Assembly (NCBI GenBank): GCA_002269645.1
Contig: NIVC01003758.1
Location: 34,872-78,403 of the forward strand
Origin: Macrostomum lignano
Lineage: Eukaryota
Length of the DNA stretch: 43,532 nucleotides
Direction of reading: 5' to 3'
Position 1 is the first letter of the stretch. Each line of letters begins with the position of its first letter. The translations under genes were made by a program, and so were the position numbers. Of the stretch, positions 1-39,681 are shown piece after piece. The notes beneath the pieces were generated by a model. The model had not been told where the DNA came from and made no database searches. It worked only from the letters and a program-made list of their open reading frames with translations.

Positions 1-89
1 ATACATTCACACATGCTCAATGCAACGGGCTTGCATTCTCTGTAACGGCTGTAAGTTATTAGTTATTAGGCGGGCGCGTAAACAAATGC

Positions 90-695
90 TTAAAATTCAC
101 AGAGGCCCGAGTCCGAGTCAAAACTCGCCCGTCGAATAGGCGGACCAGGCATATTCTCTCTAACTAGTATGCGCAATGGACCATAAAGCGAAGGCTCTTC
201 GGCGATGATTACCCAATTCTCGCCGTTACTACGCACCCGTCCATGCCCGCGCCCATCAAGAGGGCGATGTCGGGCGTAGACGTGAGATGCGTGACGATGG
301 TTAAGAAATGGGTACCAGCGAGGATTGTCGCCGCTCATAGCGCCTTCGCTCCGGCTAGGTCCATCCCGTGACTGTCGACAAACACGAGCCTCGACGGAGC
401 CAATCTCACGATGGCTGCCGCCCCCCGCGACGCTCTCGCTTGGTCTAGAAGGCTCGCTTTCCAAGTCGGATTGCACAGCGCTTCCACCGCCCACGGCACC
501 CTCGCCCAGGACGGGAGACTCTAGCATCGCAGGGGCCGGTCGAACATTCTCGCCAGAATCACTTTGAAGGCTAGATTCAACATCGCTGTCTCCGCCCGCA
601 GCGCCATTACTCCACAGGGCCCTCGCCCACGTCCACGCACTCGACTCACGGTGCCCAGCGTCCATGATCACCCTGCGGTTCAGGACTGATGGCAT
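90..695 (-). CDS. Unknown Ser/acidic-rich accessory protein, probably last exon of a spliced gene
   Basis: 201-aa ORF with no recognisable domain. Candidate 80-nt GT-AG intron at 696-775 (GAGG|GTAAGT ... TTCCTCCGCAG|ATG on minus strand); upstream frame unresolved. Confidence 0.4.
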   Translation of the reverse strand: MPSVLNRRVIMDAGHRESSAWTWARALWSNGAAGGDSDVESSLQSDSGENVRPAPAMLESPVLGEGAVGGGSAVQSDLESEPSRPSESVAGGGSHREIGSVEARVCRQSRDGPSRSEGAMSGDNPRWYPFLNHRHASHVYARHRPLDGRGHGRVRSNGENWVIIAEEPSLYGPLRILVRENMPGPPIRRASFDSDSGLCEF

Positions 696-1421
696 CTGCG
701 GAGGAAAGTCGCAACACTAGATGTTTATTTCAATGAGGATAAATTAAAACATAACCAAGCAGGTACCAAACTTACCCTCTTCAGGGATCCGGCATAGTTC
801 ATTTAAGTAGTCGGCATCCGAAAACTCGTCAAACTCCGGAAATTGCGACGAACTATTAAAATATAAAGTATCTATATGGTGTCCATTTCGCGAACGCGAA
901 CGGCCCCTCTAGGGTCGTTAACAGCTTCAGCAGCGCGTCCGAAATGATGTAGATTCTCGCTCATAACTCAAACAAAATTTAAGAAGTTATATTGATACTG
1001 CTATACAATAGAGATTGCGCTTTTTAGAGTGTATCCTCTCGGATACAGCTCCCTTGCCGTCTAAGCTTATATCGAAAGTGAAGTTCTTTGTTTAGGATTG
1101 GCTATATTTACCGTCTTTATTCTTCACAACAGAGTTACACAACAGCTGACACAGTTCCCCTAGTGGCATTTTCAGCCTTGGCACCAACTGTTTCAGCTTT
1201 GACTACATTTATCATCCCCCTTTTCATTAGTAGGCCATTGCTATTTACAGGATTTAGAAGACCAACTGTCATTCGCCATCAAAATGAAAAAACTATCGTC
1301 TTGCTACTTGCATGCAAAACTTGAAAAAATCTGGGCGCGGGTTGTCCCTTTGACATTTTGGTAAAAGCATGCGGAATGTTGTTTTTTCATCCGGGCTACA
1401 GCTGCATGCCATTTGCTGAGG

Positions 1422-1431
1422 CTTATATAAG
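1422..1431. promoter_or_regulatory. Palindromic TATA element CTTATATAAG between divergent genes
   Basis: Perfect 10-bp palindrome; plus-strand TATAAG (1426-1431) ends 47 nt before ATG 1478. Confidence 0.55.
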
Positions 1432-1477
1432 GGACTAGTCCCACAGCCGCCTAGCAACAACGACCTGGCTGACCGAG

Positions 1478-2644
1478 ATGGCGTTCTTCCCTGAAGCTGC
1501 GATTGTCTCGAAGGAGGCCCTCGAATGCAAGGATGCCGCAATTATCTTCGGCAAGGCAGAAAAGTGGAACAAACACGAAAACGGACTGCGAACTCTGGCC
1601 TGGAGACCCAGTTCTACATGCCGGGAGCTGCTGCGCTCGTTTTTCAGACCACAAAGCCGGTAGAGGTCTTTCGCGGCATCACCCGAAATGAAGGCCACAG
1701 TCCGGACAGCGGCTCGGAGCTGTGGCGCCGAGAGGGCATGAGTGTCACATTCGCAACAAAAACGTTCTGTGAAACCACATTCGAATGCATCAGGTAATTA
1801 AAGTTATTTGTAATACGTAACTATCTTTTCCTTAATTTTTGAACCACTTTTTTCAATTTTGGAACTCTGTCGCTTGCTTTTCAGAACGGCCGAAAAAATG
1901 ATTGAGGCAATTTTAACGGCTCAGAGGGACACTCATGGACTCGTGCGCCAGGCAAAGATTCCGGAGGACGGAACAACAGCCCCGCCCAGCTGGCTCGGCC
2001 TGCGTGCAAATGTTGCCTGTGCGACATTCTTAGCGGATCTGACGCACAAGATTTACTACGAGGCTCAGCTGCCGGAGTTGTTCGATCGGTCGGGACTGTA
2101 TCATTTAACCTTCCAGGCAGCTTGCTTAATCCGCCCTCGTGCCAACGACAAGTGGAAGGTGTTATTCACCCTTCGCTCTGCCGCGCTGATGGAAGGCGTG
2201 CATGACATGCAGATGTTCCGCATAGTCTCCCGCCAAATGGAAGGTTTACGCCTGGCCAAGAGGGACAACAATGGCCCGCGAGCCGCAGTGCCCGAGTCCG
2301 CCAGCCGGGAGCCAAACAAGTCAAATGTATCGACTGCTGCTGCTGATGCGCCGAGGACGATGCCGCCGCCGAAGAAGTTGCCGCGGATTCGCAAGCGGAA
2401 GGCTGATGCTGCTGCCAGCTCGGACTCTAATATCGTTGAAGCGATTGCGCAGGACCTCATGGAGGCCTGCAAGCCGCCGGTAAAGCAACTTGTGAGTGGT
2501 CCGTCTGGGCGAAAAGCGCCCACAAAGCCAAGAATGCGACCTCCACAGAGCCCGGTTTCAGCTTCTTCTGACGACTCGGAGGAGCAAACTGATGACCTAG
2601 TGGAGGTCCGCGATTCGTCGCCGCCCTTTGGCGCTTTCACCTGA
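1478..2644 (+). CDS. Unknown two-exon viral protein (about 360 aa) with disordered basic/Ser-Pro C-terminus; one frameshift near 1578
   Basis: ATG 1478. A 1-nt shift in the AAAA run (~1577-1580) joins it to the 1525 frame. Intron 1794-1884 (CAG|GTAATT ... CTTTTCAG|A) is phase 2 at both ends and joins FECIR to TAEKMIEA in frame. AATAAA at 2814. Confidence 0.7.
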
Positions 2645-2833
2645 AAAAGCACCAGCTTAGAGCGGACGCTTTAGTGACTTCGTCAAACCCAAGAAAATTA
2701 ACTATTGTCATGGTCCTAGCTTGACCATTGATTTTTGCTTCGCTAGTTAGTCAGAAAAGCTATGCGCTAGCTAGCTAGTTTTTAACCAAAATTTGAAGTT
2801 GAAGTACAAGTTAAATAAACGTGTAACATCTCA

Positions 2834-3448
2834 TTGATTAAAAAGAAATTAAGAAATGTGTTTGTTTCTTGTTCCTTGTCTCTTCCAGAGACTGCTGCAA
2901 CATGTTGTGGGGCTCGACTAGTCATTCCACCAGGCGGGCAGCTGGATCTGTTAAAGTCTAAGCTAATTTCTACCGGACGGGAGGCGAAACTCTATCGTGG
3001 GCGTCCTTCGATGCTTAAAACCCGCTTTTGTGGCTGTTCTGTTCAGCTGTATCCCAAAGGGAAAGTAACAATTTTTGGTGCTAAATCTAAAATCCAAGCA
3101 GTAAGGTGCCTGTGCTTCATAAACGAGTTATGCATCGGTGGTTTAGACTATGAGTCTGTGTGTGTGCAGACAAGTACTTATGCGGGAAGCCTAGATTCAT
3201 CTGTCCGCACTCCGCTCCTGGAGTCCCTGTTTTCGGATACCACTACACTGAAGTTGGAGAGCGGCTATTGTTTAAGCATGGATAAGGAAAATTTCCCTAT
3301 GGCAATCTCCTGCAGGCTTCAATGCAACCCGAGGCTGTTCCTGAACCTGTTCTTTAGTCGGAAATTTATAGTCTGTGGTCCTCAAAATCTCGAGGAACTG
3401 AAGCAAGTGTTGGAGGTTTTTCAACATTTGCCCCAAGCAGCTGTCTAA
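2834..3448 (+). CDS. TATA-binding protein (TBP)-like, two-repeat core; true start unresolved (probable acceptor at 2890)
   Basis: Repeat 1: QLDL...VQLYPKGKVTIFGAKS (cf. TBP KLDL...ALIFSSGKMVCTGAKS). Repeat 2: VQTSTYAGSL...ENFPMAISCRLQCNPRLFLNLFFSRKFIVCGPQNLEELKQVL (cf. IQNMVGSCDV...[40 protein letters not shown]). Confidence 0.85.
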   Translation: MIKKKLRNVFVSCSLSLPETAATCCGARLVIPPGGQLDLLKSKLISTGREAKLYRGRPSMLKTRFCGCSVQLYPKGKVTIFGAKSKIQAVRCLCFINELCIGGLDYESVCVQTSTYAGSLDSSVRTPLLESLFSDTTTLKLESGYCLSMDKENFPMAISCRLQCNPRLFLNLFFSRKFIVCGPQNLEELKQVLEVFQHLPQAAV

Positions 3449-3464
3449 TTATTCACTTCAGCAA

Positions 3465-4085
3465 ATGGCCGCTCAAGTCCGTGCTCAGACTCGAACTTAC
3501 GTGATCGAAGGTCTAATCGGGGCCGGAAAATCTTCCCTTGTCCGCAATCTGGCTCTGATGGCTCGCCTGGAATGCTGGAGTGGAGGGTACGAGTTTGCTC
3601 GGGAGCCGGCGGAATACTACCGAAAGCACCGTTACACGGAGCAAAATCTGCTGCAGCAGTTTTACGATGGTGACGTGTCTGCTTTTGAATTTCAAGTCCA
3701 TGTGTCGCACGAGATGGCGAGACGCGACATGAAGCTCCGCAAAATCGCTACAAAAGGCACGCATCGGTTTATTGTGGCAGACCGACACCTGGGCAGCTGC
3801 TATGCATTTTTAACGCATCTAAAACATCAAGGGCGTTTGAATGGTACCCAGCAAGCAATTCTCGTTAATCAGCTGCAGGTCTTAGAAAAGAAGACAAAGA
3901 CAGTTACACCTCGAGAGGATTGCACCCTGGTGTACCTTGAAATCAACCCGGAGCTGGCACTGCAGCGCATTCGCCAACGAAATCGGCACGGATTCAGTGC
4001 CGCGTTTGCGGCAAACGATTCGGAACCTAGGCAGCACTGCATGCGCATTCGCACGGTGCTTGTTTTCACCCTCTGGAATCGTTGA
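3465..4085 (+). CDS. Deoxynucleoside kinase (dNK/dCK/TK2 family), C-terminus missing after LID
   Basis: P-loop IEGLIGAGKSS, FEFQVH, ADRHLGSCYAF, and LID VYLEINPELALQRIRQRNR. Similarity ends at ~3990. Confidence 0.85.
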   Translation: MAAQVRAQTRTYVIEGLIGAGKSSLVRNLALMARLECWSGGYEFAREPAEYYRKHRYTEQNLLQQFYDGDVSAFEFQVHVSHEMARRDMKLRKIATKGTHRFIVADRHLGSCYAFLTHLKHQGRLNGTQQAILVNQLQVLEKKTKTVTPREDCTLVYLEINPELALQRIRQRNRHGFSAAFAANDSEPRQHCMRIRTVLVFTLWNR

Positions 4086-4349
4086 TTCGCGAGCCAGTCA
4101 ACTCGTTGATTAGCGATCCGCCTAGTGGCTGGAATGCGGCTCTGGAAGAATCAGCGCTGCATGGAAGAGCTAATTTTCTAAAATTTATTCCCACTGCTGC
4201 ACTGGCAACAACAACACAACAACGGGATCTCTGAGGTGCTCGCTTCACTTCAACAGCCGATCTACAGACTTTTCAGCAGGTTACTGCAGCCAGATCTACT
4301 AATGCGAACTTGCATTCATTTAAAGTGTAAGCTAAGTCGTCTGATGCCA

Positions 4350-4382
<33 letters not shown>

Positions 4383-7300
4383 GACCAGCCACCGCTGCAA
4401 CAACAGGAGATTTCAGTTTATTTCAATACCAATATCGTTACGATAACAATTGACGAAGAGTCTGCTGCTGCTGCTGCTGCTGGAGCTCTTCTTTCGCCCG
4501 ACGCCTTTAACCAGTGGTTTTTGCGCGCTGTTGGTGATCTTGTCACTCGACTGGAAAATTTTCAAAAACAAGGCAGCAATTGGCATCTCGAGGCGGTGGA
4601 ACAGGTTGATTTTTTACTCGCCCTGTACAGACGCTCTCGTGCGAGAGCGTCTGTACAGCGCGGTGCAGGAGCTGGAGCACCCGCGGCGGCGGCGGCGGCG
4701 GCGGCGGCCACACCTTTCAAAATTCCGCTGTCACTGGCGAGAAAAGCTGGATCTGTGCTGCTTCTAAAACCAAACAATGCGAACCAGCAGGATTGTTTTT
4801 GCTATGCTGTAGTAGCAAGCGTCTTTCAAAAAGCTGTGCCCCGACCGGCTAGACGGGCCAGCTACAAGCGATGGTTGCAAGTTTTCGATTTCGGTCGAAA
4901 TCCATCCGGTCCTAAACGGCACAATGCACACAGCTACAACAAGTTTCTGAGAAAAAATCCCACTCTTGGCTTACGCATGTTTGTCTGGGATCACGAAAGC
5001 AAATCTGCTAGCTTGTTTTTTTCGAAAAAAACACCAGAAGCTATCTACACGGCAAATTGCCTGTTCATACCACCTTATTCAAGCTTTAAGTTTGGGCACT
5101 ATGTGCATCAAGAATTTGCAAAGCCTGCTAAGTTCTAACACGCGACGACGGCGTTTCTGTCCCGACTGTTTAGCGCCATTTAATCACACTGTGTCCTGGG
5201 ACTTCATCTTGAACGAGCACTGCTGTACTGGCACGTCCGTGCCTCCAACCGAGCCTGCAGCTCAACCAAGGGGCTGTGTATGGCAGTCTGAACCAGAGGG
5301 TCAGTTCCGCGAGATCCGCTTTGTTCCGCGTGAAGAAATGCCAGCTCAAGAGGAGGCTTTTGTGCGCTTCACAGCCGATGAGACGCGACTACCTGCTTTA
5401 TTTGTTATTTATTCAGATCTAGAAACGATTGCAATGAGTCCGGAACAGGCGGCTGCGGCCGGTCACCCGGTTCCCAAACTCGGTAGCGGCATTGTACGAG
5501 AAGTACTCGTACCACTCTGCCTGGGCTACAGATTGGTTACCCAGCCGCAAGACTTCAAAAGCAAGCTGCCTTCATATTGTGCTGGAAAGCCGTGTGAGGT
5601 GCTGTATTCTAGTCCGTGCTCGGTCGGGCCCAATTGCGTGAGCCAGTTTCTTCTAAAATTACGCCAACTAGCTTCGGAAATCATGCACTATGGACGGGTA
5701 GAACTCCACAAACCACTGATGAGAAAGTTTCTTCCCGCACGAAGACTAGTGCTGGAGGCAGCGACAAATTGCCAGTTGTGTCTGCGGGAGTTCGGACCCG
5801 GAGAAGAAGAAGATCAAGCTGTTTTGGACCACTGTCATTTGACAGGCCGTCCTCGTGCTGTTTTATGCCGCTCTTGCAATCGAAAACTAAGTTTACAACG
5901 CCGAAAAATAACAGTTTTTATGCATAACCTGAAAAATTTCGATTCGAAATTTATCATTCGAGAGATCTACGAGACTTTCTCGGGCACCAGCAAGGACATT
6001 CGGCTGAATGTCTTGCCGGAAAACCGTGAGCGGTTTAAGACATTTTCCATTAAGTTTCGACTGCAGGGAGGCAGCACCAGCACGGACGGCATTGACGAGG
6101 CGTGGTTTGAAATTTGTTTCAAAGACACATTTGCCTATTTACCGTCAAGCCTGGCGAGCCTGGCAGGACGTCTTCAACCAGATCAACTCATCTGTACAAA
6201 GGAGCTTCTAAAGTTCTATCCAGGCCTGAGCGAAACGACTCTGTTGCAAAAAGGAGTCTATCCGTACTCATTTGCGGATTCTTTTGAGAAAATGGATTCA
6301 GTTACGCGTCTCCCACCCAGAGAGGCGTTTTTTGACCACCTGAGAGAGGAGCCCTGCTCGCTCGAGGACTACGCCCGGGCCGAAAAAAGCTGGCAAGAAT
6401 TCGGTTGCCGCAGCCTGCGGGACTACACAACAGCATACCTGTCTTTGGACGTGCTGCTTCTGGCGGATGTGTTCGAGGCTTTCCGTAAAACCGGCCTGGA
6501 GGAATACAGCATTGACCCGGCCCACTATTTGGGCGCGCCAATGTACAGCCTCGCCAGCTGCCTACTAACTCTTCAGGAGCCTATTCAGTTAGTCACTGAT
6601 GCGGACATGTACCGTGGCGGCTTCAGTTTTGGTACACGGCACCTGACCACTGCAAACAATCCGCTTGTAGAACCTTTCCGCTGCCAGCTTGACGAGAAAG
6701 AACCGGAGTTTGTGCAGTTGCGGAAAAACGCTCCGGCAAACACTTTTCTTGTTTATCTGGATGCCAATTCACTCTATTCAGCATGCATGGTTCATCCCAT
6801 GCCTTGTGCTGATTTCAAGTGGATGACTTTGCAAGAAATCCGGTCCGTTCCGTGCGACAATGGACTGTCCGCCGATGAACTCGAGGATCCATCAGTGAGG
6901 AGCAAGCTGCTGGACTGGATTTGTAATTTCTGTTCGGCAGACCGGGGCGCCCTGTTCACGGTGGATCTCTACTATCCAAATTTTCTGCACGACTCCACTG
7001 CTGATTTGCCCTTGGCTTTAGGTCACGAAACTGTGACTGAGAGCCGGCTGACAAGAACTCAGCGACAAGACTGGCTACTACTACAGCGGCAGATGAATCC
7101 AAATCGCAGCGCTAACGCAACCTCATACGAGGAGGTCAGCCCATTCAAAAGCCCTACGAAAAAGCTAATCGCTTCGCTGGTGCACAAAAAAACTACGCGG
7201 TGCACTACAGAGCTCTGCGCCTCTATCTGGAGTTGGGACTGCGCGTGACACGAATTCGCCGAGTGCTTGTCTTCACCGAACGCTCGATCTTGCGCTCTTA

Positions 7301-8158
7301 CATCGAGCGCAACATTGAGAGGCGGAAAGCGGCCACGGGGGATTTCGAAAAAGATTTTTTTAAGTTACTCAACAATTCGCTCTTCGGGAAGTTTCTTCAG
7401 CGCGTGCGCGACCGGATGAACTTTCGAATGTGCTCCGACCCAGAGAAGCTGGAGACGCTGGTCAGTATGGAACGCTTCCAAGATGTTGTAATCTACTCTG
7501 AAAATCTCGCGGGAGTTAATCTCGCTCCAAGAAAAGTTACGCTAAACAAGCCGATCATCATTGGCGCCGCAATTCTCGATATTGCTAAGACAATTGTCTA
7601 TGACTTTTATTACAGTCATGTTCAGGCGCACAGCTCTCTGGAGTGCGCGCGCGTCCTCGCTGGCGATACCGACAGCCTGATGATGGCCCTGGTGATGCGC
7701 AAGTCGGGAGAAACCCCGTACGACACTATTTTTAAGGACTTTGTGCAGCAAGGCCTTTTGGACACCAGCAACTACCCGAAGACCCATCCTCTCTACTCTG
7801 ACAGACACAAGGGTCGGCTGATGGCGTGGAAGGATGAATTCGGCGGGCAGCTGGCTATCGAGCTGGCGTTTCTGCGGCCCAAGAACTACTCTTTTTTGAG
7901 GGCCAATGAAGTTGTGCAACAACTGTCGCGCTGCAAGGGGGTGACGAAGACGGTTGCCCGACAGATTAAGCATACTGAGTATGTAAGAACTGTTAACGAG
8001 AGAAGCCTCTACTACGTTCAGCAGCGACGCTTCAGTTCGCAAAACAAGTTGTCTTTTTGCTCGAGCATCGCAAGCTAGCCCTAAGCTCTTTCGACACGAA
8101 ACGTGCTTGGCTGGGCGCGCTCGCCTCTCTACCCTACGGCCACTGGCGGTTGAACTAA
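3989..8158 (+). pseudogene. polB: Protein-primed family B DNA polymerase (Maverick type) with N-terminal zinc finger, endonuclease VII-like insert and 3'-5' exonuclease; broken by frameshifts
   Basis: C2H2/C2HC finger CRVCGKRF..L..H (3998-4050, TAG at 4028), SALHG, GSNW, ExoI YSDLET, DHCHLTG...CRSCN, ExoII HNLKNFD, ExoIII YLSLD, motif A YLDANSLY, motif B KLLNNSLFGK, motif C GDTDS, KNY, C-terminal ALSSFDTKR...PYGH (stop 8156-8158). Frameshifts near 4230, 5105, 7190 and 8055. Confidence 0.93.
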
Positions 8159-8339
8159 TCTATCGCTTTGACTTTTTTAAACCAAGTGTTGATGAGTGTG
8201 CGCTATGCCGTGATTTGACTAAATATAGCGACAGCGAAAACTTGGTCTACTACTAATCTTGCTAAACTGTTAGAGGCCTAGTCAATTTGTTTTTCTACGG
8301 CAGATACGAGGAGGGAAGTAGCTTGGGTGGCTTTAGCAT

Positions 8340-8348
8340 TATAAGTAA
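8340..8348 (+). promoter_or_regulatory. TATAAGTAA motif upstream of dUTPase
   Basis: Same motif as before structural genes; hexamer ends 92 nt before ATG 8437. Confidence 0.5.
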
Positions 8349-8436
8349 AGCGAAAACGATATTTTAAACCTCTACAAGAAACTAACAAACACCTCACCCC
8401 AATCTCTGTTCCAGCTCTATCTGCACACTGCGCAAC

Positions 8437-9015
8437 ATGGACTCGACCGGCTGCTCTTCAGTGGACGAGGAGCTGCGAATCTTCTTGGAGGAAGCCGGAG
8501 CAAAGATTCCGCAACGGGCGACCGAGCGATCGGTTGGCTACGATCTAGCCAGCTTGGAGAAAAAAACCATTACTGCGCAAAGCTGGTGTGTACTCGATAC
8601 CGGAATAAGTATCGATCTGCCAGACGGCACGTATGGTCGAATTGCTTCTCGCTCAGGCCTGGCTGCGCGCTACGGAATCGTTGCCGGCGGCGGAGTTATC
8701 GACCCAGACTACATCGGACAGCTGCAAGTGATTCTTTTCAATCATTCGACTTGTGACTTCAAGGTCGAGCCTGGCGACCGCATCGCTCAATTGGTTTTGG
8801 AGCGTGTCGCTACACCATCTGTTGTTGTTAATCGTGCAGGCAGGCCTGGCAAAAAGGAAGGAGAAGAAGTGAAGACCAGGGCGCACGACGAGGGACTAGT
8901 CAACGACGATGACAAGACCATCCCTGTCCTCGTCGATGAAGAAGAGAACGAAGGACCTATCGAGCCGCCGAAGCGCATTCGCGGAACGGGCGGATTGGGC
9001 AGTACCGGAATTTGA
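8437..9015 (+). CDS. dut: Trimeric dUTPase with acidic insertion before motif 5
   Basis: SVGYDL, GRIASRSGLA, GGVIDPDYIG, GDRIAQLVL and RGTGGLGSTG motifs. Confidence 0.95.
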   Translation: MDSTGCSSVDEELRIFLEEAGAKIPQRATERSVGYDLASLEKKTITAQSWCVLDTGISIDLPDGTYGRIASRSGLAARYGIVAGGGVIDPDYIGQLQVILFNHSTCDFKVEPGDRIAQLVLERVATPSVVVNRAGRPGKKEGEEVKTRAHDEGLVNDDDKTIPVLVDEEENEGPIEPPKRIRGTGGLGSTGI

Positions 9016-9166
9016 ACGCTTTTGCGCGGCGTAATGGGACCTGATAATGATGACACTAACAAATCTAAACGTAGCTAGCACCGCAAACTCAAACTCTAAT
9101 ATTCTCTTGTTTTAAACAACTTCAAAATATACGCTACCACCAATCGACGTAATAGTCAACAGATTG

Positions 9167-9175
9167 TATAAGCAA
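9167..9175 (+). promoter_or_regulatory. TATAAGCAA motif upstream of PLA2/ATPase pair
   Basis: Hexamer ends 51 nt before ATG 9223. Confidence 0.65.
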
Positions 9176-9222
9176 AACAAATTTCCCTACGAGCTATGAC
9201 TTCAAAATATTACTAGCAGAAA

Positions 9223-9659
9223 ATGGTAAGAGACCAGAGCAGGCACTTGAAAAAGAGCGCAAGAAAAACTAAAAAAAATCTCGAACTACTACTACTAGTA
9301 GCCGTAGAGCAAAACGGAATCAGCGACTACAGAGAGGAAGTGGTATTGTAAATTTGGTTATTAACCATTTGCCGTTTGAACTACATCTTCCGGGCTACCA
9401 ATTCTGTGGACCGGGTACTAGGTTGAAAGAACGATTGGCCAAAGGCCAGACCGGGAAAAATAGGTTAGATAGGCTGTGTATGCTGCACGATAAGGCCTAC
9501 GAGAAGAACTCTGAAACGAAAGACCGTCTCGAAGCGGACCGCTTGCTGGAACAGGGCGCGCGAGAAATAGCCCACGATCCAAGCAGTGGTTTGGGTGAGA
9601 AACTAGCCGCCAAATTTGTAGCAAAAGTTATGCAAGTAAAGCAACAAGCGAGCGCCTGA
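9223..9659 (+). CDS. Parvovirus-type phospholipase A2 (PLA2X-like) virion protein with basic N-terminus; frameshift in A run ~9272-9279
   Basis: HLPGYQFCGPGT Ca-binding loop and CMLHDKAY catalytic HD. ATG 9223 joins the PLA2 frame (...RLQRGSGIVNLV) after a 1-nt correction in the A8 run. Confidence 0.85.
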
Positions 9660-9664
9660 GCTAC

Positions 9665-10369
9665 ATGGAGACAAAGCCGCCTATCTACGATTTGCGCCTC
9701 GCGCCTGATTCAACCATCATCGTGGCGGGGCCTTCGATATCTGGGAAGACAGAATGGGTTTTGCGTCTAATCAAAGAAAGAGTAGCCATGTTTAAGAAAC
9801 CACCACAACGGCTAGTCTGGTGTCACGGGACCGATCTTCATGACCAGGAACGCGGGAAAATTCGGGCTTGTTGGGGCAACTCCGAAGGAATACATTTTAT
9901 TCGGGGTTTTACGGGCGCATTGTTAGGGAGCTTACGATCGGGAGATCTTTTGGTTGTTGACGATCTGCAAAGTGAGATTGCTAAATCCGCCGACTTCACA
10001 GCTGTCTTCACCAAACACGCCCACCATTTCCCATTAAACTGCATATACCTATGCCAGAATCTGTTCAGCCGTTCAGACGCGGAGGCACGAACAAGAAGCT
10101 TATCTACAAGCTACATCTGTTTAACCCGCTCGGTACGAGATCGAACCGCAGTTTTGAATCTTGGGAAACAGATGTATCCAAAAAAAAGTAACTATCTCGT
10201 CCAAGTCTACGAAGACGCAACCGATGGAAAACCGTACTCATATCTACTTATCGACTTGCGTCAGGATACGCCAGATTTCTTGCGACTTCGAACAGGCGTG
10301 TTTGCGGGAGAGCTGATGATAGCCTATGGTGGGCCTGGCAACAGAGAACTAAAGGCGCCTGGATTATAA
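9665..10369 (+). CDS. A32/FtsK-like genome packaging ATPase
   Basis: Walker A GPSISGKT, Walker B LLVVDD, HH..N.IYLCQNLF motif. Confidence 0.92.
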   Translation: METKPPIYDLRLAPDSTIIVAGPSISGKTEWVLRLIKERVAMFKKPPQRLVWCHGTDLHDQERGKIRACWGNSEGIHFIRGFTGALLGSLRSGDLLVVDDLQSEIAKSADFTAVFTKHAHHFPLNCIYLCQNLFSRSDAEARTRSLSTSYICLTRSVRDRTAVLNLGKQMYPKKSNYLVQVYEDATDGKPYSYLLIDLRQDTPDFLRLRTGVFAGELMIAYGGPGNRELKAPGL

Positions 10370-10373
10370 GCAA
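10365..10373 (+). promoter_or_regulatory. TATAAGCAA motif upstream of penton, overlapping ATPase stop
   Basis: Hexamer ends 49 nt before ATG 10419. Confidence 0.65.
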
Positions 10374-10418
10374 GCCATGTTGTTTCAAGACTGAACCATC
10401 GCCACCAAGGAAACAAAC

Positions 10419-11429
10419 ATGAGCTTCTACGTTTTTCTTCCTTCAAACGACAAAAGCTACCCATCCAACACTCCAAACGAGTTTCGTGTGCGATTGAAAA
10501 ATCCTCTGAACCTTATCGGACGTTATGGGACCGCGAACGCGTACGAGGTCGCTTTAGTCGAGCTTTTGTGCAGAGGTGCTATAGGAAACATTGGTTATGC
10601 TGCCTCCGATAGGTCAGGGTTATTGCCCTATTCGGTTGATATTAGTCCACATCTTTCAGTGAAGCAGGCTGCTTTGACAAAAATTTGGCAGGGAGGCGAC
10701 CTGGAAGCCTATCTGCTTTGTCGCCCGGAAGAGCGGCAGTACCTGTGGTATCTCCGAAACGGTGGCGCGAGTCAATTAGCAATCCGTTTACCTTCACATT
10801 TCATGCGTGTCTATGGCTTCGATCAGTGGAAAATAGTGCGTGGGAAGGATAGTGATTTCCATAGCATTGAATCTCTTACTCGGAGTCCACTCATCGGTGA
10901 GGAAGGAAGCTATAAAAGCTATTACGAGAGAGCGAAAAGCTCAACTGAATACATAACCGATCCTGATTTCGATTTCCGTCTGAGACCAAGCGAAGCTTTA
11001 GCTCTAATTGGTAGTACAGAGGTGATAATGGGACAGGCGCCTGGGAAGAGCGAGGGGGACCGAGCGCTAGATAAGTATTGGCAGAAGAACAAGGCCTGGA
11101 TGATTAGAGCCATAGCGCTAACATCGCCCAGCGAAAAAATCGTTCGGGGAAAGACTGTCTACATGCACTGCTACACTGACATAATTGAATACCAAGCGGT
11201 TGGCAGTCACCTTGTGCCCCTTCTGCGGATTATGGCGTTGCACCCTCAAACAGGGGGCCAACTTCAGCCCCAAGACGGTATGATCACAAATCCCTACTAT
11301 TTGCCAACGAATCGGCAAAATATCGACGAAATCACCATTCGGTTAGGTGACGAACAGGGAAATCCTCTCACTTTCCAGCCGGATGCACATTGCGTAGTGG
11401 TGCTGCATTTCCGCCAAAAAACCGACTAA
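10419..11429 (+). CDS. Minor capsid protein (penton, single jelly roll)
   Basis: N-terminal FYVFLPSN...NEFRVRL..PL...YEVALVEL and C-terminal YTDIIEYQ.VG...PLLR...PYY.P.....IDEITIRL.DEQG.PL.F...VVLHFRQ, typical of Maverick pentons. Confidence 0.88.
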   Translation: MSFYVFLPSNDKSYPSNTPNEFRVRLKNPLNLIGRYGTANAYEVALVELLCRGAIGNIGYAASDRSGLLPYSVDISPHLSVKQAALTKIWQGGDLEAYLLCRPEERQYLWYLRNGGASQLAIRLPSHFMRVYGFDQWKIVRGKDSDFHSIESLTRSPLIGEEGSYKSYYERAKSSTEYITDPDFDFRLRPSEALALIGSTEVIMGQAPGKSEGDRALDKYWQKNKAWMIRAIALTSPSEKIVRGKTVYMHCYTDIIEYQAVGSHLVPLLRIMALHPQTGGQLQPQDGMITNPYYLPTNRQNIDEITIRLGDEQGNPLTFQPDAHCVVVLHFRQKTD

Positions 11430-11432
11430 ATT

Positions 11433-11441
11433 TATAAGCAA
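11433..11441 (+). promoter_or_regulatory. TATAAGCAA motif upstream of pX-like gene pair
   Basis: Hexamer ends 43 nt before ATG 11481. Confidence 0.65.
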
Positions 11442-11480
11442 ACAAGCACATCATTAAATATAGAGTGAGGAGAGTAGGAT

Positions 11481-11933
11481 ATGGCCGCACGACGATTAAC
11501 GCAAAAAGCGAGAAAGAGTGCATCTTCGATCACAAACTGCGCGGAAATTCTGCACATTGTTGCTCGACTGCGTGATAGAAAAACCAGACGAGATTTCCTT
11601 AAGACTCTCAGTCTAGCAGAAGTGCGTTGTATAGTCGAGTTCTTGATCAATATCGTGCGGCAGCGAGTGCCACTCCGCCACGCGGACCGGAAAAAATTAG
11701 AAAAACATTGTCGACCTATTCAGAAGCTCATTTCGGGTGGTCATTCTCTGACTGAGAAAAAAAGAATCATTGTACAACACGGAGGTTTTCTGCCTTTCCT
11801 CGCGCCGATTGTGGCCGCAGTAACGGCAGCATTACCATCCGTCACCACGGCTCTTGGAATCACCTCCGGCATTGCAGGTACAGCTGCGGGTACTGCTAGT
11901 CTCGTGCGCAGCATACAGAACAAACGAAACTGA
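11481..11933 (+). CDS. Basic core protein with adenovirus pX-like C-terminus (QHGG|FLPFLAPIV)
   Basis: K/R-rich N-terminus, then GG followed by a hydrophobic peptide resembling adenovirus pX RGG|ILPLLIPLIAAAIG. Confidence 0.7.
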   Translation: MAARRLTQKARKSASSITNCAEILHIVARLRDRKTRRDFLKTLSLAEVRCIVEFLINIVRQRVPLRHADRKKLEKHCRPIQKLISGGHSLTEKKRIIVQHGGFLPFLAPIVAAVTAALPSVTTALGITSGIAGTAAGTASLVRSIQNKRN

Positions 11934-11937
11934 AAAT

Positions 11938-12644
11938 ATGGGAACTCGCTCACACGAGGCACTGCAAAAGATGGTTGTTATTCCCATCTCAGAATATTCG
12001 CAGCTGGTCGCGCAAAACAAGTGCGCTGACGAACGAGCAAAGGTTTTGGAGATGCCAAATGACACGATGGGACAAGAACTCGTGCGGATGAAACAGAAAA
12101 TCGATGGGTTAGACGAGATTATTGCTACGGATCAATCTACCCCGAATTCGCCTGCTCGTCTGGCAAGAAACAGAATGGAAAGCAAGCTCCTACAAACACG
12201 CGAGCAGTTTTTGAAGCCAGATGATAACCCTCAAGCGAGTGAAGAGCCGTTAGTCAATAGCGCGGAGGAAGAGAGCGAAACAACACGCATTCCAAAAGCA
12301 CTTCAGGCACGTTGGCGACGTCTTAAAACTTTCATCGAAAATGAGAAAGCAAATCTAGCGGCAAACGGCACCGAACTAACCGAAACGGAGATGCGCGATC
12401 TGATGGACTACGTAGTTCGCGACAAACCCCTGAAGAGGCATGGGGGCGCCTGCCAGGCGGGTTGGAAAACTTTTTAAGTTACCTGCGTCAACGAAAAGCG
12501 GATCCTCAGCTTGTCGGAAAACAATTTCGAACGGAATTGTCAGCTGCAGCAGAGAAAGAGCTACCACCCGCCTTCACCGAGGAAAAAGAAACACGGGACG
12601 AAGAAATGGATTTCCTAGAAAATTACGAGACACTGACAAGCTAA
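11938..12644 (+). CDS. Conserved-type Maverick protein of unknown function; frameshift in T run 12471-12475
   Basis: ATG 4 nt after the pX stop; KMVVIP..EY..L N-terminus. Adding one T joins GWKTF to LSYLRQRKADPQLVG. Confidence 0.65.
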
Positions 12645-12669
12645 GTTTGTAGTTAAATATTGTAGCAGC

Positions 12670-12675
12670 TATAAG
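12670..12675 (+). promoter_or_regulatory. TATAAG motif upstream of 99-aa ORF/integrase
   Basis: Hexamer ends 48 nt before ATG 12723. Confidence 0.55.
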
Positions 12676-12722
12676 CTAACTGGTCGGACGCATCGCGGAT
12701 TGAGTATCAACACACTCTGATA

Positions 12723-13022
12723 ATGGAACTACGCGAAATTTTACGCTTTGTTTTTCATTTGGTTGTGAGACTTTTGCAAGGCTGCTTAGGCGGGGCGCTC
12801 CACCATAACGAGGACACTCCCGACGCGGGCGATATCACCATACAGAACATTAGGTGCTGCATGACGGTGACGCGCTCTGCATCAACTGATAACTTGCCAC
12901 AGAGCAGCGGTGCGGGAGGAATCACCGATACAAAAACCGATGGCAGCGAAAAAGAGACCTCCGATGCGAAAGGCGAAACACCAGAGCCGGCAGCTGTCCG
13001 AAAACGCAAAAGAACGGACTAG
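12723..13022 (+). CDS. Small protein, hydrophobic N-terminus, basic C-terminus (KRKR)
   Basis: 99-aa ORF preceded by the shared TATAAG at the usual spacing; overlaps the integrase start. Confidence 0.5.
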   Translation: MELREILRFVFHLVVRLLQGCLGGALHHNEDTPDAGDITIQNIRCCMTVTRSASTDNLPQSSGAGGITDTKTDGSEKETSDAKGETPEPAAVRKRKRTD

Positions 13023-14178
13023 TTTGAACAACTCGCTAGACGTCAAGAACTTCTTAGACAGACAATTTTACGATTTGGACCGCCCTACTGCTTTTGCGGG
13101 AAGTAAGCAACAGCTATTAAGACATGTTAAAACCCAGTTTCCGTCACTAGAATCAAAACGAGCGGCAGAAATCGTTGACGAATGGGCCCGGGATACCAAA
13201 GAATATAACCTGTTTCGCAAAACTAAACGAATATTCAAAACCCGCAGAATTGGTGTACCACATATCCCTGGTTTTCAATTCCAAATCGACCTGGCTGATC
13301 TCCCTCAATACAAGTCAGAAAACAAGGGATACCGCTACATCCTCGTTTTGATCGATTGTTTCACTCGCGAAGTACGTCTGCGACCTCTACGAACAAAAAC
13401 TGCTAAAGAGGTGGGCGCCGCACTTGAAAATCTGTTTCGTGAAGGCTTCCGACCTCTCTATCTTCAGGGTGACGCGGGAAAGGAGTTCCTAGGGCGTGAA
13501 ACTCAAGCTGTACTAAAACGGGCGGGTGTACGCTTTTTTGTTAGCCAAAGCAATTACAAGGCTGCGATCGCTGAAAGGTTAATCCGTACTCTGAACGAGC
13601 GGCTCAGCCGTTATTTTCGGGCTCGAAACCTAGAACGCTGGTATGACATTCTACCCCAAATGGAACGAAATTTGAACTCAAGCCCTCACCGGGCGCTGTT
13701 TGGTCAGAGTCCTCACAACACGGCGGTGGATCCGCGTCTACAAGGAATCATCGGGTCTGAGATTATAGAGCATGAAGCCTCGCAGCAGCCTCTATCAACA
13801 CTAAAGGTAGGAGACTGGGTAAGAATCGCACGACATCGGGGTGCCTTCGAGAAGGGCTATTCGACAGTGTGGAGCAACACCGTGTTTCGGATCCGTGCTA
13901 CGAATCCTCGCCGAGCAGCGTCGTATAAACTAGAGAATCCGGAAGACGGAAATAGCACACTAGAGGGTTACTTCAATGAGGGAGAACTACAGCGTGTAGC
14001 AAAAGAAAATACGGAGCCGTCAGTCATCGAGCGTGTAGACGCTTACGAACAAGACTCAGACGGTCAGCGGCGGTATTTAGTGAAATGGCAAGGAGTTGAG
14101 GCCTTTAGGAATCAGTGGTTGAAAGAAGGCGAGTTGGATGAGCGAACTCGACGGCTTTTTCGGCGCGTTTATAAGTAA
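12940..14178 (+). CDS. Retroviral-like DDE integrase (c-integrase) with C-terminal chromodomain
   Basis: FQIDLADL, ILVLIDCFTR, LQGDAGKEF, AIAERLIRTL; chromodomain RRYLVKWQG...NQWLKE. Confidence 0.95.
   Translation: MAAKKRPPMRKAKHQSRQLSENAKERTSLNNSLDVKNFLDRQFYDLDRPTAFAGSKQQLLRHVKTQFPSLESKRAAEIVDEWARDTKEYNLFRKTKRIFKTRRIGVPHIPGFQFQIDLADLPQYKSENKGYRYILVLIDCFTREVRLRPLRTKTAKEVGAALENLFREGFRPLYLQGDAGKEFLGRETQAVLKRAGVRFFVSQSNYKAAIAERLIRTLNERLSRYFRARNLERWYDILPQMERNLNSSPHRALFGQSPHNTAVDPRLQGIIGSEIIEHEASQQPLSTLKVGDWVRIARHRGAFEKGYSTVWSNTVFRIRATNPRRAASYKLENPEDGNSTLEGYFNEGELQRVAKENTEPSVIERVDAYEQDSDGQRRYLVKWQGVEAFRNQWLKEGELDERTRRLFRRVYK
14170..14178 (+). promoter_or_regulatory. TATAAGTAA motif upstream of core gene, overlapping integrase stop
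   Basis: Hexamer ends 41 nt before ATG 14216. Confidence 0.65.
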
Positions 14179-14215
14179 ACTGTGAAATTGGAACATAATA
14201 ACAATTAAAAATTTG

Positions 14216-14677
14216 ATGGATCCAATATACCGATTCTATTCTGGACCCACTCAAAGCGGGGGAGGATCCTCCGCCCGAGCGATTCCGATCTACGAAGGCT
14301 ATGGGTTCCTTTCCAACCTCTCTAATCGAGTGTTGATCCCGGTTATGCGGAGTGCGGGAAAGGATCTTTTGGCACGGGGCTTGGAATACCTATCAGGCAC
14401 TAGCAACGAGACAACAAACGTTAATCGCAAACGAAAGCACACGGGAAGCGGTTACAAGATGTCGAGCGCAGCTGTTCCCACAAAACGCAGCCGAAAAAAA
14501 CGTCCTCGGAAAACTATAAGCAAACGGGGTAAGAAAGCTCGCACTCGTGGAAAACCGGCAAAAACCCAGCGAGGAAAGGGTCTAACCAAGAAGAAGCGAC
14601 GAAGGGTGAAGAAAAAGCGGAATCGCAAGGCCGTTGCTGCTAAATCGCTGTTTAGTCTCCTGGAAAACCGAAAATGA
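14216..14677 (+). CDS. Highly basic core/DNA-condensing protein (pVII-like)
   Basis: SGG, GYG|FL and GSG candidate cleavage motifs; K/R-rich C-terminal half; ATGA overlap with MCP. Confidence 0.7.
   Translation: MDPIYRFYSGPTQSGGGSSARAIPIYEGYGFLSNLSNRVLIPVMRSAGKDLLARGLEYLSGTSNETTNVNRKRKHTGSGYKMSSAAVPTKRSRKKRPRKTISKRGKKARTRGKPAKTQRGKGLTKKKRRRVKKKRNRKAVAAKSLFSLLENRK
14515..14523 (+). promoter_or_regulatory. TATAAGCAA motif embedded in core ORF, upstream of MCP
   Basis: Exact 9-mer match; hexamer ends 154 nt before MCP ATG 14674. Confidence 0.45.
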
Positions 14678-16005
14678 ACCAGTTGCTTGGCCCTGACAGT
14701 GTAGTACTAAAAAGCGAATTGGCCCTTTTTGATGCAGCCGCTGTACAGTACAGTGTAGTGGACAGCCAGTATACCCACATTCAGCCGCAACACGGACTCT
14801 CAAAAGGTGCCCCAATCGAGTTCGAAGTCGTCTCCGCAGGGGATGCACTCTACCTGGATCTACAAGAGACGATTCTAAATCTGGCCATACGTGTACGAGA
14901 CTCGGACGGAGTAACCGCTGATGCGACGAAGAACAACGTAGCGCTGACTAATTTGCCTATCGCGAGCCTGTTCCGCGATGTACAACTAACTATTGGAGAC
15001 ACTGTAGTCGAAGGCGGAACCTTCATGTACCCCTACAAAGCCATGCTACTGACGCTTTTAGAATATGGTTCGGATGCTCAAACCTGTGGTCTAACGCCCT
15101 GGGGTTTCTACAAAGACACAGCTGGACAAATGCATTCAGCCGGCGACGCGAACGTTGGCGCTAAACGCCGACGCGCATTGATAGCAGGGGGTCGAGAGTG
15201 TCGCTTATCGGGGCCCTTGTTCTTGGACATGTGCCGCCAGCCGCGGTTTCTGTTGTCTAAAACTCCTGTACAAATAAAATTGATTCCGTCTTCCGCTGCC
15301 TTCGCCCTCATGGTCGGTGCGATAGGTGAAAACCCGCTAAAGAGCTACGAGATAGAGGTGCTAAAGGCCGAGCTCCGTGTACGCTACGTATCCCCCTCGC
15401 CGAGTGTACTCGCTGCGCACGCTGCGGGGTTGAAACAGCACAATGCCATCTATCCAATAAATCAGCTACAGATGAGCACGTTTACTGTTACGAGTGGTAC
15501 GTCTAGCTACACGCGTGAAAATCTCTTCCCAAGCGGCGTTCCGAAACTTCTACTTCTGGCCTTTGTGAGCAACAAAGCGTTCAATGGAAGTGTGGACACA
15601 AACCCGTTTAGATTCGAACATGCCAACCTGAGCAGTTTGGGGGTGTTTGTCAATGGGGAGCCGGTGCCAACAAGACCCCTCGAAACCGACTACAGCGATA
15701 GTGGGGACTGCGTTTTGGAGTACGGGTGGTTTTTGCAACAGCTGGGGTTGCATCTGCGTAACCGCGACTTGGGGTTCACGATGGCAGAGTACAAAGCCGG
15801 CTACACTATCTACGCCTTCGGTCTGGGTAGTGAGGTGGGTGTCGGAGCTGGCGCACAGGTATATAAAGAGGGCAATGTACGATTGGAACTACGCTTCGCG
15901 ACTGCCACGGACAAAGTCTACAACGTCATCGTGGGCGGACTATTCGACAAGCAGCTGCATTTGACGGAGTTCCGCGCCGTGGTACCTGGATCTGTATGGA
16001 AGTAG
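14674..16005 (+). CDS. Major capsid protein (double jelly roll, hexon-like)
   Basis: KSELALF, YLDLQET.L, PIASLF, YPYKAML..LL.Y, YKDTAG, LSGPL..D...Q..FL, NPFRF, GYTIYAF and GNVRLELRF motifs of the Maverick MCP; intact 443 aa. Confidence 0.93.
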   Translation: MNQLLGPDSVVLKSELALFDAAAVQYSVVDSQYTHIQPQHGLSKGAPIEFEVVSAGDALYLDLQETILNLAIRVRDSDGVTADATKNNVALTNLPIASLFRDVQLTIGDTVVEGGTFMYPYKAMLLTLLEYGSDAQTCGLTPWGFYKDTAGQMHSAGDANVGAKRRRALIAGGRECRLSGPLFLDMCRQPRFLLSKTPVQIKLIPSSAAFALMVGAIGENPLKSYEIEVLKAELRVRYVSPSPSVLAAHAAGLKQHNAIYPINQLQMSTFTVTSGTSSYTRENLFPSGVPKLLLLAFVSNKAFNGSVDTNPFRFEHANLSSLGVFVNGEPVPTRPLETDYSDSGDCVLEYGWFLQQLGLHLRNRDLGFTMAEYKAGYTIYAFGLGSEVGVGAGAQVYKEGNVRLELRFATATDKVYNVIVGGLFDKQLHLTEFRAVVPGSVWK

Positions 16006-16589
16006 ATAACACTACTATTCTATCTGGCGTAACTAATGTGTTTTTGCGCTCGGTCTGCCTAAAATTATTGCGTATTTATCCTGATGCAGTTTTTATGGGA
16101 GTTTACCCAAGCAATTCTCTACCAACGATCCCTACTCTAAACACGAGTCCGTACTTTCAAGACACGCGTAACTATTTTTTCATCGTAAACACGGACCCTA
16201 GCAATTTGCCCGGAAAACACTGGGTTGCTGTCTGGGTCTGTGCAGGCCCTATTGGCGCTGTTAGACGAGCTAGGATAGGTGAATACTTTGATCCGCTAGG
16301 TTTGCACCCGCTGCCTGAAATCTCCCAGTGGATGAGCCGAAATTTTGGAGATCCAAAAAACTGGCGTTACACGCGCTATGCGGTGCAGGATCCCCGTACC
16401 GCCCACTGTGGAGCCTGGATTCTGTTCTATCTGTTTTTTAAACTTGCTAGTGGAAAGGATCTAAATTCGTTCATCCACTGGGTGATGCGACAACATGGTC
16501 GGGCTCGCAGCAGCCCTTTCTCGCGCGCGTTTTCCTCTCTGAGCTTTTTTCTCAAGCATGTTCTTCAACCCCTACTGCGCCGCCGGTAA
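15996..16589 (+). CDS. Adenain/Ulp1-like (clan CE) cysteine maturation protease
   Basis: IVNTD...PGKHWVAV (His), EYFDPLG (Asp), VQ....HCGAWIL (Gln, Cys). Confidence 0.93.
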   Translation: MEVDNTTILSGVTNVFLRSVCLKLLRIYPDAVFMGVYPSNSLPTIPTLNTSPYFQDTRNYFFIVNTDPSNLPGKHWVAVWVCAGPIGAVRRARIGEYFDPLGLHPLPEISQWMSRNFGDPKNWRYTRYAVQDPRTAHCGAWILFYLFFKLASGKDLNSFIHWVMRQHGRARSSPFSRAFSSLSFFLKHVLQPLLRRR

Positions 16590-16882
16590 AGAGCGAGCGT
16601 TTCACTGTTTTAATGCAAGCTTGACCAGATAGTTTATTATCCAGACAAAAAATATAAAAGCTTTCATCAACAAACGAACTAATTCACAAAAGCATTGTGG
16701 CAATAGAGCGATGCGTGTGTATGTGCCTTTTTTATTTGGCTGTGACACAAACGGTCGCAGCATTGAACGACCACGTATGTAGAAGAAAGAGTGATGCTAG
16801 AAAGATCATGACGGGGACGAGATTTGGTAACGCGCCTGTGCAGGATGGAAATTCATCGTCTATAACCTAGAACTTTGTATTA

Positions 16883-16996
16883 GTTTTGCTATGCAAAAAC
16901 AGGCTATGCACGTATCCCCATTGAACTAGTGCTTGGAACTTCCTATTGATTTCGCCATGTAAAAACGAGCTATGGGCGTAAAAAACGCTTACTACT
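16883..16996 (+). repeat. Right terminal region of element 1 with subterminal direct repeats
   Basis: GTTTTGCTATGCAAAAACAGGCTATG (~16883) and GATTTCGCCATGTAAAAACGAGCTATG (~16948), then ...CGCTTACTACT terminus. Confidence 0.65.
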
Positions 16997-17295: not shown

Positions 17296-17609
17296 CCAAC
17301 CATGAGCGGATGGGATTGCGCTATTGAGAAATTTCGTAGGACCTGAGGTCCGGATAGAGAGGCATCTCGAGCCCGCATGTAGCCGGAGATGCCAAGGCTC
17401 GAGGGGTATTGCTAAAATTTAATTCTATGACTCTTGGGAAGTTGAGAGAAGTTACAAGCTACATATAGTTTACAAAATATTATTATAATTTTTGTTTGCT
17501 CCCCAAAAGGGGCGCTGATTTCTAGTGTATTGCTAAAAATCGAAATGTATCTTACTTGTCACATGGAATGTTGCTATGCTCTAAAAGAAACATAGGTTAG
17601 ACCTCGAGC

Positions 17610-18147
17610 GTGGACACGAACCCGTTTAGATTCGAACATGCCAACCTGAGCAGTTTGTGGGTGTTTGTCAACGGGGAGCCGGTGCCTCTCGAAACCGACT
17701 ACAGCGATAGTGGGGACTGCGTTTTGGAGTATGTGTGGTTTTTTCAACAGCTGGGGTTGCATTTGCGTAACCGCGACCTGGGGTTCACGATGGCAGAGTA
17801 CAAAGCCGGCTACACTATCTACGCTTTCGGACTGGGTAGTGAGGTGGGTGTCGGAGCTGGCGCACACGTACGAGTATATAAAGTAAAGAGGCCAATGTAC
17901 AATTGGAACTATATGCTTCGCGACTGCTACAGACAAAGGGCCAGTTCTATAAAGCCATCGTAACATAAGATCGATCTTAGCTCCTATCTTCGCAGTGCAA
18001 AAGTTCCGAAGTGCGATCGAACTTGCGCTACGACAGCTCTATAGTACGACCCCAAAGTCTACAACGTGATCATGGGTGGGCCATTTGACAAGCAGCTGCA
18101 TCTGACGGAGTTCCTCAACGTTGGTACCTGGATCTGTATGGAAGTAG
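17610..18147 (+). pseudogene. MCP C-terminal fragment, frameshifted, MITE-interrupted
   Basis: DTNPFRFEHANLSSL...GYTIYAFGLGSEVGVGAGA, near-identical to 15592-16005. Confidence 0.9.
17938..18053. mobile_element. 116-bp MITE, Harbinger-like GGG...CCC ends, AAA target duplication
   Basis: Absent from the intact MCP (GACAAAGTC). 18-bp imperfect TIR (13/18) GGGCCAGTTCTATAAAGC; AAA at 17935-37 and 18054-56. Confidence 0.65.
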
Positions 18148-20833: not shown

Positions 20834-21088
20834 ACAGTTCCCGTCAATCAGTCGATTTAAGAAATCATGATAAGCATGATAAGCAGTGATTCATTTCTGA
20901 GTTCTGAGGCCCGAAGCTACAGGCTTAAAAAGGCCGAACCCATCAAAAACTTCGCCTACAAGCGAATTGATTCAAAAAACATTGTGGCAAATATGCGTGT
21001 GTGTGTGCGTCTTTTTTATTTGACTGCGACACAGACGGTCAAAGCATTGAACTACCAAACCAAAAAGTAGGAAGCAGGAAGAGTGCGG

Positions 21089-38137: not shown

Positions 38138-38208
38138 ACATACACCAACCCCTCGCACGCGCCGCAGGCGCGAAGGGTCTTTTTCTGTTACTAAAAATAG
38201 AACAAAAA

Positions 38209-38607: not shown

Positions 38608-38617
38608 CAATATAAAA

Positions 38618-39598: not shown

Positions 39599-39681
39599 GC
39601 TCCTGGGGGGTGGATCAGGACACCAAAAACGCAAATTAAAAAATAAATAATTCAAATACTATATAAATTTCATTCTATAAA

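Follow-up and report, generated by a model that had tools for sequence, protein, structure and literature searches.

Judging from sequence comparisons, four Maverick lineages in the genome of the flatworm Macrostomum lignano have in common a conserved gene for a divergent TBP-like protein, which is therefore not a lone passenger of one insertion. The gene was identified in a 43,532-nt stretch of contig NIVC01003758.1 (hereafter the window), in an element of the type denoted lineage A below.

The TBP fold and the element that carries it

Positions 1-16996 of the window are a Maverick that encodes, according to Pfam, a protein-primed family B polymerase (pPolB), a deoxynucleoside kinase (dNK), a dUTPase, an integrase with a chromodomain and, weakly, an A32-like ATPase; both pPolB and the retroviral-type integrase, a combination expected of Mavericks, are thus represented. 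The preliminary description placed the gene among viral genes of a Maverick/Polinton, 16 nt upstream of dNK, and both statements are borne out, the former by these Pfam matches together with the right terminal repeat and the latter by the TBP stop codon at 3446-3448 and the dNK ATG at 3465. The features downstream of the TBP-like gene are as follows.

3465..4085, + strand, deoxynucleoside kinase (dNK), Pfam match; 3' part disturbed near 3987 in the window copy
4182..8078, + strand, protein-primed family B polymerase (pPolB), Pfam match; three overlapping frames in the window copy
8386..9015, + strand, dUTPase, Pfam match
9599..10369, + strand, A32-like packaging ATPase (Pox_A32, E 0.0025, below the cut-off)
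12871..14178, + strand, integrase with a C-terminal chromodomain, Pfam match
14656..16005, + strand, candidate major capsid protein, no Pfam match
15867..16589, + strand, candidate cysteine protease, no Pfam match
16813..16996, no strand, right terminal inverted repeat (about 185 bp) with a short AGT-type repeat at its end

We take 14656..16005 to be the major capsid protein from its motifs and position, and 15867..16589 to be an adenain-like cysteine protease from its motifs. The left end of the element is lost in a scaffold gap directly before the window, and a sister insertion (L067/L068) has both 185-bp terminal repeats (98%); a matching 6-bp target-site duplication was not seen at the single sister copy inspected. 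No RNA polymerase gene is seen in the window element.

Several other features of the window were noticed. A small conserved gene at 9273-9659 (+ strand), 68-73% identical between families, contains an H-D-x-x-Y motif that presumably resembles parvoviral phospholipase A2. Behind the element lies a decayed partial duplicate of its capsid-protease end with pieces of the terminal repeat (17585-18700 and 20960-21060), followed by long minisatellite arrays with units of 22, 23, 28 and 29 nt (24769-32100) and two intronless sulfate-permease (SLC26-like) frames in opposite orientation (36288-37877, + strand; 32296-33282, - strand). The first part of a second, AT-rich Maverick-like element occupies 37873-43532; inverted repeats resembling a hairpin lie at 37873-38137, and there are Adeno_PX-like and endonuclease VII-like matches and a 706-aa frame at 41167.

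The TBP fold of the window gene is, on profile matches and a predicted structure, almost certainly genuine. The Pfam TBP family (PF00352) matches the window protein (P0001) with E 2.5e-4 and 21.3 bits, slightly below the curated cut-off of 22.9, which is passed by six of the nine lineage A proteins, by both proteins of lineages B and C and by none of the three lineage D frames. All 13 matches of P0001 among PDB sequences are TBPs, each weak (E 0.15-0.55), and TBP clusters account for all 30 matches in an Atlas search with language-model features (best 0.95, 210/256 features). With 15 Maverick-type sequences used as a profile, 35 of 36 PDB sequences are matched at E<1e-14 (34 are named TBP). 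The structure model was built for the sister copy L002 from the splice acceptor on (99% identical to the window protein from residue 24 on), using an alignment of 15 Maverick-type rows from which cellular TBPs were left out. The modelled TBP exon (pLDDT 88.9, pTM 0.79) forms a single saddle from two tandem TBP repeats, with 16-22% structural identity to TBPs. Foldseek returns TBP entries in all rows among the matches listed to rank 44 (best E 4e-10), with full-length matches to solved TBPs at TM 0.61-0.72, and a wide structure search yields TBP with Z 15.1 (rmsd 3.4 A, 167 aligned) and the next unrelated fold with 8.8. The two-repeat TBP-like gene proposed initially, both quoted motifs of which are present in the window frame, is thus upheld by the Pfam match just under the cut-off, by Atlas, by the profile and by the agreement of the model with the TBP saddle (TM about 0.7 over the full length). 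Among the viral structures of BFVD, the best Foldseek matches are giant-virus TBP-like proteins with 9-22% identity; a Heterosigma akashiwo virus TBP and an asfa-like B263R homologue are included.

A single-sequence homologue search retained none of 146 candidates. Scans of IMG/VR with alignments A2, A4, A5 and the host TBP, and of JGI metagenomes with alignment A3, found no relatives; these scans are pattern-limited and do not imply absence.

Four Maverick lineages with the gene

TBP-like genes occupy fixed positions in four divergent Maverick lineages (A-D) of the host genome, with tens of copies per lineage. Searches of this genome gave 80 matches with P0001, 150 scored matches of 330 candidates with PF00352, 151 with a lineage C query (a large number belonging to lineage B) and 92 with a lineage D query (the first 17 identical), all of which count matches, not copy numbers. 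In each of the 20 stretches fetched around such matches, one or more of the Maverick polymerase, capsid, ATPase and integrase is matched, and a TBP-like match occurs in 19. Conversely, when six capsid loci with 31-36% identity to the window capsid were taken as the starting point, a TBP-like frame was found nearby in five by profile and in the sixth through the lineage D query search. Among seven further single stretches, two of lineage A type (L098 and L099) carry pPolB and gave no match to TBP in the 2.3-3.9 kb checked upstream, one starts at a contig end beyond the expected site, and four are without element genes.

In lineage A, the genes follow the order upstream gene, TBP exon, dNK, pPolB, and the arrangement upstream gene - TBP exon - (dNK) - pPolB is fixed across families that are 30-45% alike. 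In lineages B and C, a free-standing TBP gene with its own ATG lies behind a conserved gene that overlaps the TBP start, and in lineage D there is no Met ahead of the TBP fold. Insertions of the L041 family have differing flanks and right ends that are 98-99% alike. The dN/dS ratios (Nei-Gojobori) are 0.14 in lineage A (the only unsaturated pair of four), 0.07 in lineage D, 0.20-0.41 in lineage B (0.10-0.36 in the non-overlapped half) and 0.83 and 0.98 in lineage C. From these sequence comparisons, we consider it very likely that this is a functional Maverick gene under selection. Outside the host genome, four singleton relatives were found for lineage A and a handful for B and C, all without genomic context; the lineage B proteins have near-identical relatives that are recorded as hypothetical proteins of Macrostomum lignano. 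Together with the flatworm leader motif present in the host genome, these relatives identify the host as a macrostomid flatworm.

The individual lineages show several peculiarities. In one lineage A family (L048:3772-5151, - strand; also L141), the TBP exon runs in frame into dNK, a predicted three-part fusion, with TBP-dNK frames of 469-473 aa open in three matches. In L004 and L005, close relatives of the window copy, the upstream gene contains an LTR-retrotransposon-like insertion. In lineages B and C (L053:4482-5655, L088:2631-3720), the upstream frame overlaps the TBP gene by about 100-130 codons in another frame, and the public gene model P0010 joins the two genes of this layout; in L060, a TATA box immediately precedes the TBP ATG. 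Lineage D elements (L093/L094, L134/L135) are about 10.5 kb long with 650-bp terminal repeats and encode an integrase, capsid, protease, ATPase, a Fic-domain protein (Pfam E 7e-14) and the predicted TBP fusion, with no pPolB match seen; this lineage seems to have spread recently, as its TBP copies include at least 17 that are identical.

Gene structure and predicted splicing

From the layout of the locus, the TBP fold probably forms the final exon of a fusion that arises by alternative splicing in cis with the gene directly upstream. The corresponding features of the window are the following.

1424..1431, + strand, canonical TATA-like box preceding exon 1; all 9 loci examined have a similar one
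1478..1793, + strand, upstream gene exon 1, about 105 codons, with a frame break near 1633 in the window assembly
1794..1884, + strand, upstream gene intron 1, 91 nt, GT...AG; skipped in the X1, X2 and X4 contigs, kept in X7
1885..2644, + strand, upstream gene exon 2: conserved domain and low-complexity linker, with P-P-x-K-x-L ending at 2491 in the fusion form
2492..2888, + strand, predicted alternative intron 2, 397 nt, GT...AG, phase 0, with conserved donor and acceptor
2814..2819, + strand, polyadenylation signal AATAAA of the short form, shortly before the end of one RNA contig at 2828
2889..3448, + strand, TBP-fold exon with two repeats; 186 codons in the sister copy

In the short form, exon 2 is read on to the stop codon at 2642-2644 and ends in an acidic tail, so that intron 2 contains the tail, stop and polyadenylation signal of this form. 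The gene had been delimited as 2834..3448, of which 2889..3448 stands as the TBP exon, whereas 2834-2888 belongs to the predicted intron and is not coding; likewise, the polypyrimidine-CAG acceptor exists, but its CAG ends at 2888, not 2890. As described before, no in-frame ATG precedes the fold in the window, the first being at 3011, and an in-frame Met before the fold is missing in five of the six lineage A families. The exception is the window's own family, in which L002 has an in-frame ATG 33 nt before the acceptor (window 2856); in L041, there is an in-frame stop at the acceptor. The spliced first exon that had been postulated is supported by the conserved donor and acceptor, and would be the neighbouring gene itself, with its donor at 2492.

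In particular, 126-150 nt before its stop the upstream ORF contains a strong donor that is in frame with it (2492 in the window), and the predicted intron 2 is 259-619 nt long elsewhere. This donor follows P/T/S-x-x-K-x-L in all 16 loci with the acceptor pattern (19 examined), and where 10 loci were examined for the frame, all 9 with the pattern have the donor in that of the upstream ORF; by way of control, the 3582 nt just upstream contain one GT[AG]AG motif. A pyrimidine-rich YAG directly ahead of the first strand, in phase 0, is present in six of six lineage A families, and the donor is conserved in all six as well as in lineage D, where the same layout recurs in five of five loci with P-x-K-I-K, the lysine being invariant in 8 of 8. 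The pre-donor peptide can be read as taking the place of the residues that precede the first strand in the host TBP and in lineage B with its own ATG. The predicted fusion product would have about 490 aa, by arithmetic from the exon lengths.

The frame 2819-3448 is open in the window sequence, and comparison with the sister copies L002/L003 places a frame break in the TBP exon at about 2905-2912. Near 1633 and 2908, where the window frames are broken, contigs from each of the four runs read as the sister copies do; hence the break at 2905-2912 is probably an assembly error. The run records do not label any run as RNA, and X1, X2 and X4 were treated as RNA because the GT-AG intron 1 is skipped there and kept in X7. 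The RNA junction sought at the acceptor was not seen: there are contigs over the TBP exon, but those of X1 and X2 that reach the acceptor continue through it without splicing, and none of the three RNA-type contig sets has the 2491-2889 joint or, among the ends listed, a leader end. As rare forms are lost from contigs, this neither shows nor excludes the fusion.

Other ways to start the protein were considered and rejected. A separate first exon between the upstream stop and the acceptor lacks a strong donor in five of six families (a weak site exists in L041) and any ATG in three of six; direct splicing of exon 1 to 2889 mismatches the phases in the window's family; the ATG at 2856 is carried by this family only and is no general start; and a ribosomal frameshift in lineage D is inconsistent, by eye, with frames and sequence across two subfamilies.

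Spliced-leader trans-splicing, by which the short form would be cleaved near 2830 and an AUG-ending leader joined to the phase-0 acceptor to yield a minimal free TBP, appears rather unlikely as the explanation, and could coexist with the fusion. Flatworm leaders end in an ATG usable as a start, as excerpts of PMC12582326 state, and operon spacing is near 100 bp in excerpts of PMC8629364. The host genome contains the leader motif ending in ATG 63 times (control 0), followed by a GTAAG donor in two of five loci looked at, and the three families without ATG between the upstream stop and the acceptor fit this route. However, it leaves the conserved in-frame donor and the P-P-x-K peptide unexplained, no loose end at 2888 occurs among those listed, and two of the lineage D loci have the acceptor within the reading frame of the upstream gene. 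An 11-kb tandem unit (L077, L078) was observed to contain spliced-leader RNA genes, in which the leader is followed by GTAAG; leader matches without this donor, in L061-L063, resemble retrocopied trans-spliced messages.

Possible role, origin and known systems

Equivalent residues were derived from an alignment to yeast and host TBP, with yeast numbering and residue roles that are in part our presumption. Equivalents of E188 and F190 are present in at least 90% of 29 aligned rows, which preserves the acidic C-terminal stirrup for TFIIB at the sequence level; F207 is kept in lineages A, B and most of C and missing in D. In lineage A, E188, F190, P191 and F207 are retained in the C-terminal half; the positions of F99 and F116 are occupied by Pro and Tyr, and N69, T124, N159 and T215 are all substituted. 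Tyr-Pro-x-Gly is invariant in 15 of 15 rows. With two of the four phenylalanines and the central Asn/Thr replaced, the protein departs from the residue set of a canonical TATA binder, and binding of DNA by the fold is only putative. In the passages available from PMC12529657, E188 is a TFIIB contact and the four phenylalanines form the DNA wedge.

Given that no RNA polymerase gene is seen in the element, the most likely role is that of an element-specific initiation factor that would direct host polymerase II to the element's own promoters, to which, by analogy with viral TBP mimics, we assign about an even chance. The host TBP would drive the gene from the canonical TATA box, yielding an early transcript. 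The usual transcript would retain intron 2, stop at 2644 and be polyadenylated near 2830, giving a protein without TBP, a step partly shown by the RNA contigs. When the donor at 2492 is used, as its conservation suggests, the N-terminal domain and linker would be joined to the TBP fold. By the same analogy, the fold might bend DNA with one phenylalanine pair, use the retained stirrup of its C-terminal half to recruit host TFIIB and polymerase II, and read a non-TATA promoter motif, switching on the later genes of the element. This suggests that the elements might steer the host transcription machinery much like large DNA viruses do.

A decoy that does not bind TATA and sequesters host TFIIB or TBP regulators (NC2, Mot1, TAF1), damping host or defence transcription, would also fit the kept stirrup and the change of half of the DNA-binding face, and seems improbable: the changed residues are themselves conserved (Tyr-Pro-x-Gly, as above) and one phenylalanine pair is kept, which favours a retuned DNA-binding face over a dead one.

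A doubtful alternative is a role of the fusion in replication or replication-coupled transcription, with the N-terminal domain as an ssDNA-binding protein and the TBP fold binding displaced strands or bending a terminal-repeat origin. The exon motifs and acidic tail resemble, as we presume, T7 gp2.5-type SSBs; the gene adjoins dNK and pPolB, and in the L048 family the TBP exon is fused to dNK. The preference of a divergent Giardia TBP for single-stranded DNA, according to portions of PMC12209930, also counts for this role. Against it, the N-terminal domain (model pLDDT 38) has no match in Pfam, PHROG or PDB and Atlas matches under 0.9, the TBP gene is free-standing in lineages B and C, and lineage D has the predicted fusion, with no pPolB seen. 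The N-terminal domains of lineages A and D are connected by a weak profile link (E 0.0017, probability 16%; E 0.015).

As to origin, the Maverick protein is 21-27% identical to the host TBP (27% local), whereas the host TBP is 43% identical to an archaeal TBP; a canonical TBP and a second paralogue, which we take to be TLF-like, are located elsewhere in the genome at three loci each. The early view that the gene is too divergent to be the host's TBP therefore stands, and the high identity expected of a recent capture of host TBP/TRF is not found. That it is a captured host TBP, now a decaying passenger, is highly improbable and largely refuted by splice-site conservation and dN/dS: several genes are broken in the window copy and lineage C evolves near-neutrally (0.83, 0.98), but identity to the host TBP is low, frames are open in many near-identical copies, three lineages are under purifying selection and the splice sites are conserved.

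More tentatively, the fold may be an old core gene of a Maverick branch, inherited with capsid and polymerase and not captured from the flatworm, and in two lineages a splice switch might fuse it to a replication ssDNA-binding protein, tying late transcription to replication. If so, these would be integrating viruses of 10-20 kb with a transcription programme of their own, possibly linked to giant-virus TBPs. No transcription factor is known to belong to the usual Maverick gene set, nor is one named in the two surveys cited below, and the findings bear on how Mavericks time their genes and pass from silent insertion to the making of capsids. In a single host, which belongs to an animal group with laboratory models, the TBP-fold gene is retained by four lineages; near-identical copies of it are numerous, the exons that flank it are expressed, and the splice switch predicted for it is precise.

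The window element shares pPolB, integrase and terminal inverted repeats with animal Mavericks/Polintons, and probably also the A32 ATPase, capsid and protease. TBP and TATA occur 0 times in the main texts of a nematode Polinton survey (PMC10748475) and of a 2026 preprint on a Polinton-like virus framework (10.64898/2026.06.19.733378). The one direct precedent that emerged, compared here by figure legend only, is a gene labelled 'TBP' in the legend to Figure 5 of Starrett et al. 2021 (PMC8502044), in the map of a MELD virus, a virus or element of midsize whose polymerase is adintovirus-like; section 3.4 of that paper contains no TBP analysis, and one of its supplements gave 0 matches. Thus, TBP in such viruses is not without precedent, and a description of it as a conserved, selected, alternatively spliced animal Maverick gene was not found.

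Cellular TBP/TRF proteins (PF00352) have the two-repeat saddle and the C-terminal E-x-F-P stirrup in common with the Maverick protein, which differs from them by the replaced N-terminal phenylalanine pair and central Asn/Thr, by its location on a mobile element and by the predicted N-terminal fusion through alternative splicing. Giant viruses mostly carry their own RNA polymerase, in contrast to these Mavericks, with genomes of 10-20 kb and no polymerase of this kind seen. The giant-virus TBPs, asfarvirus B263R and ORF24/UL87 of beta- and gamma-herpesviruses are likewise divergent virus-borne TBP folds, with only 9-22% identity between viral TBP-like factors and the Maverick protein. ORF24, as stated in passages of PMC12529657, redirects host polymerase II to viral late promoters and has all four phenylalanines without the TFIIB glutamates. 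The Maverick protein has the opposite residue pattern: from its sequence, it appears to be a natural TBP in which half of the DNA face has changed and the TFIIB face is retained, inverse to the situation in the herpesvirus mimic.
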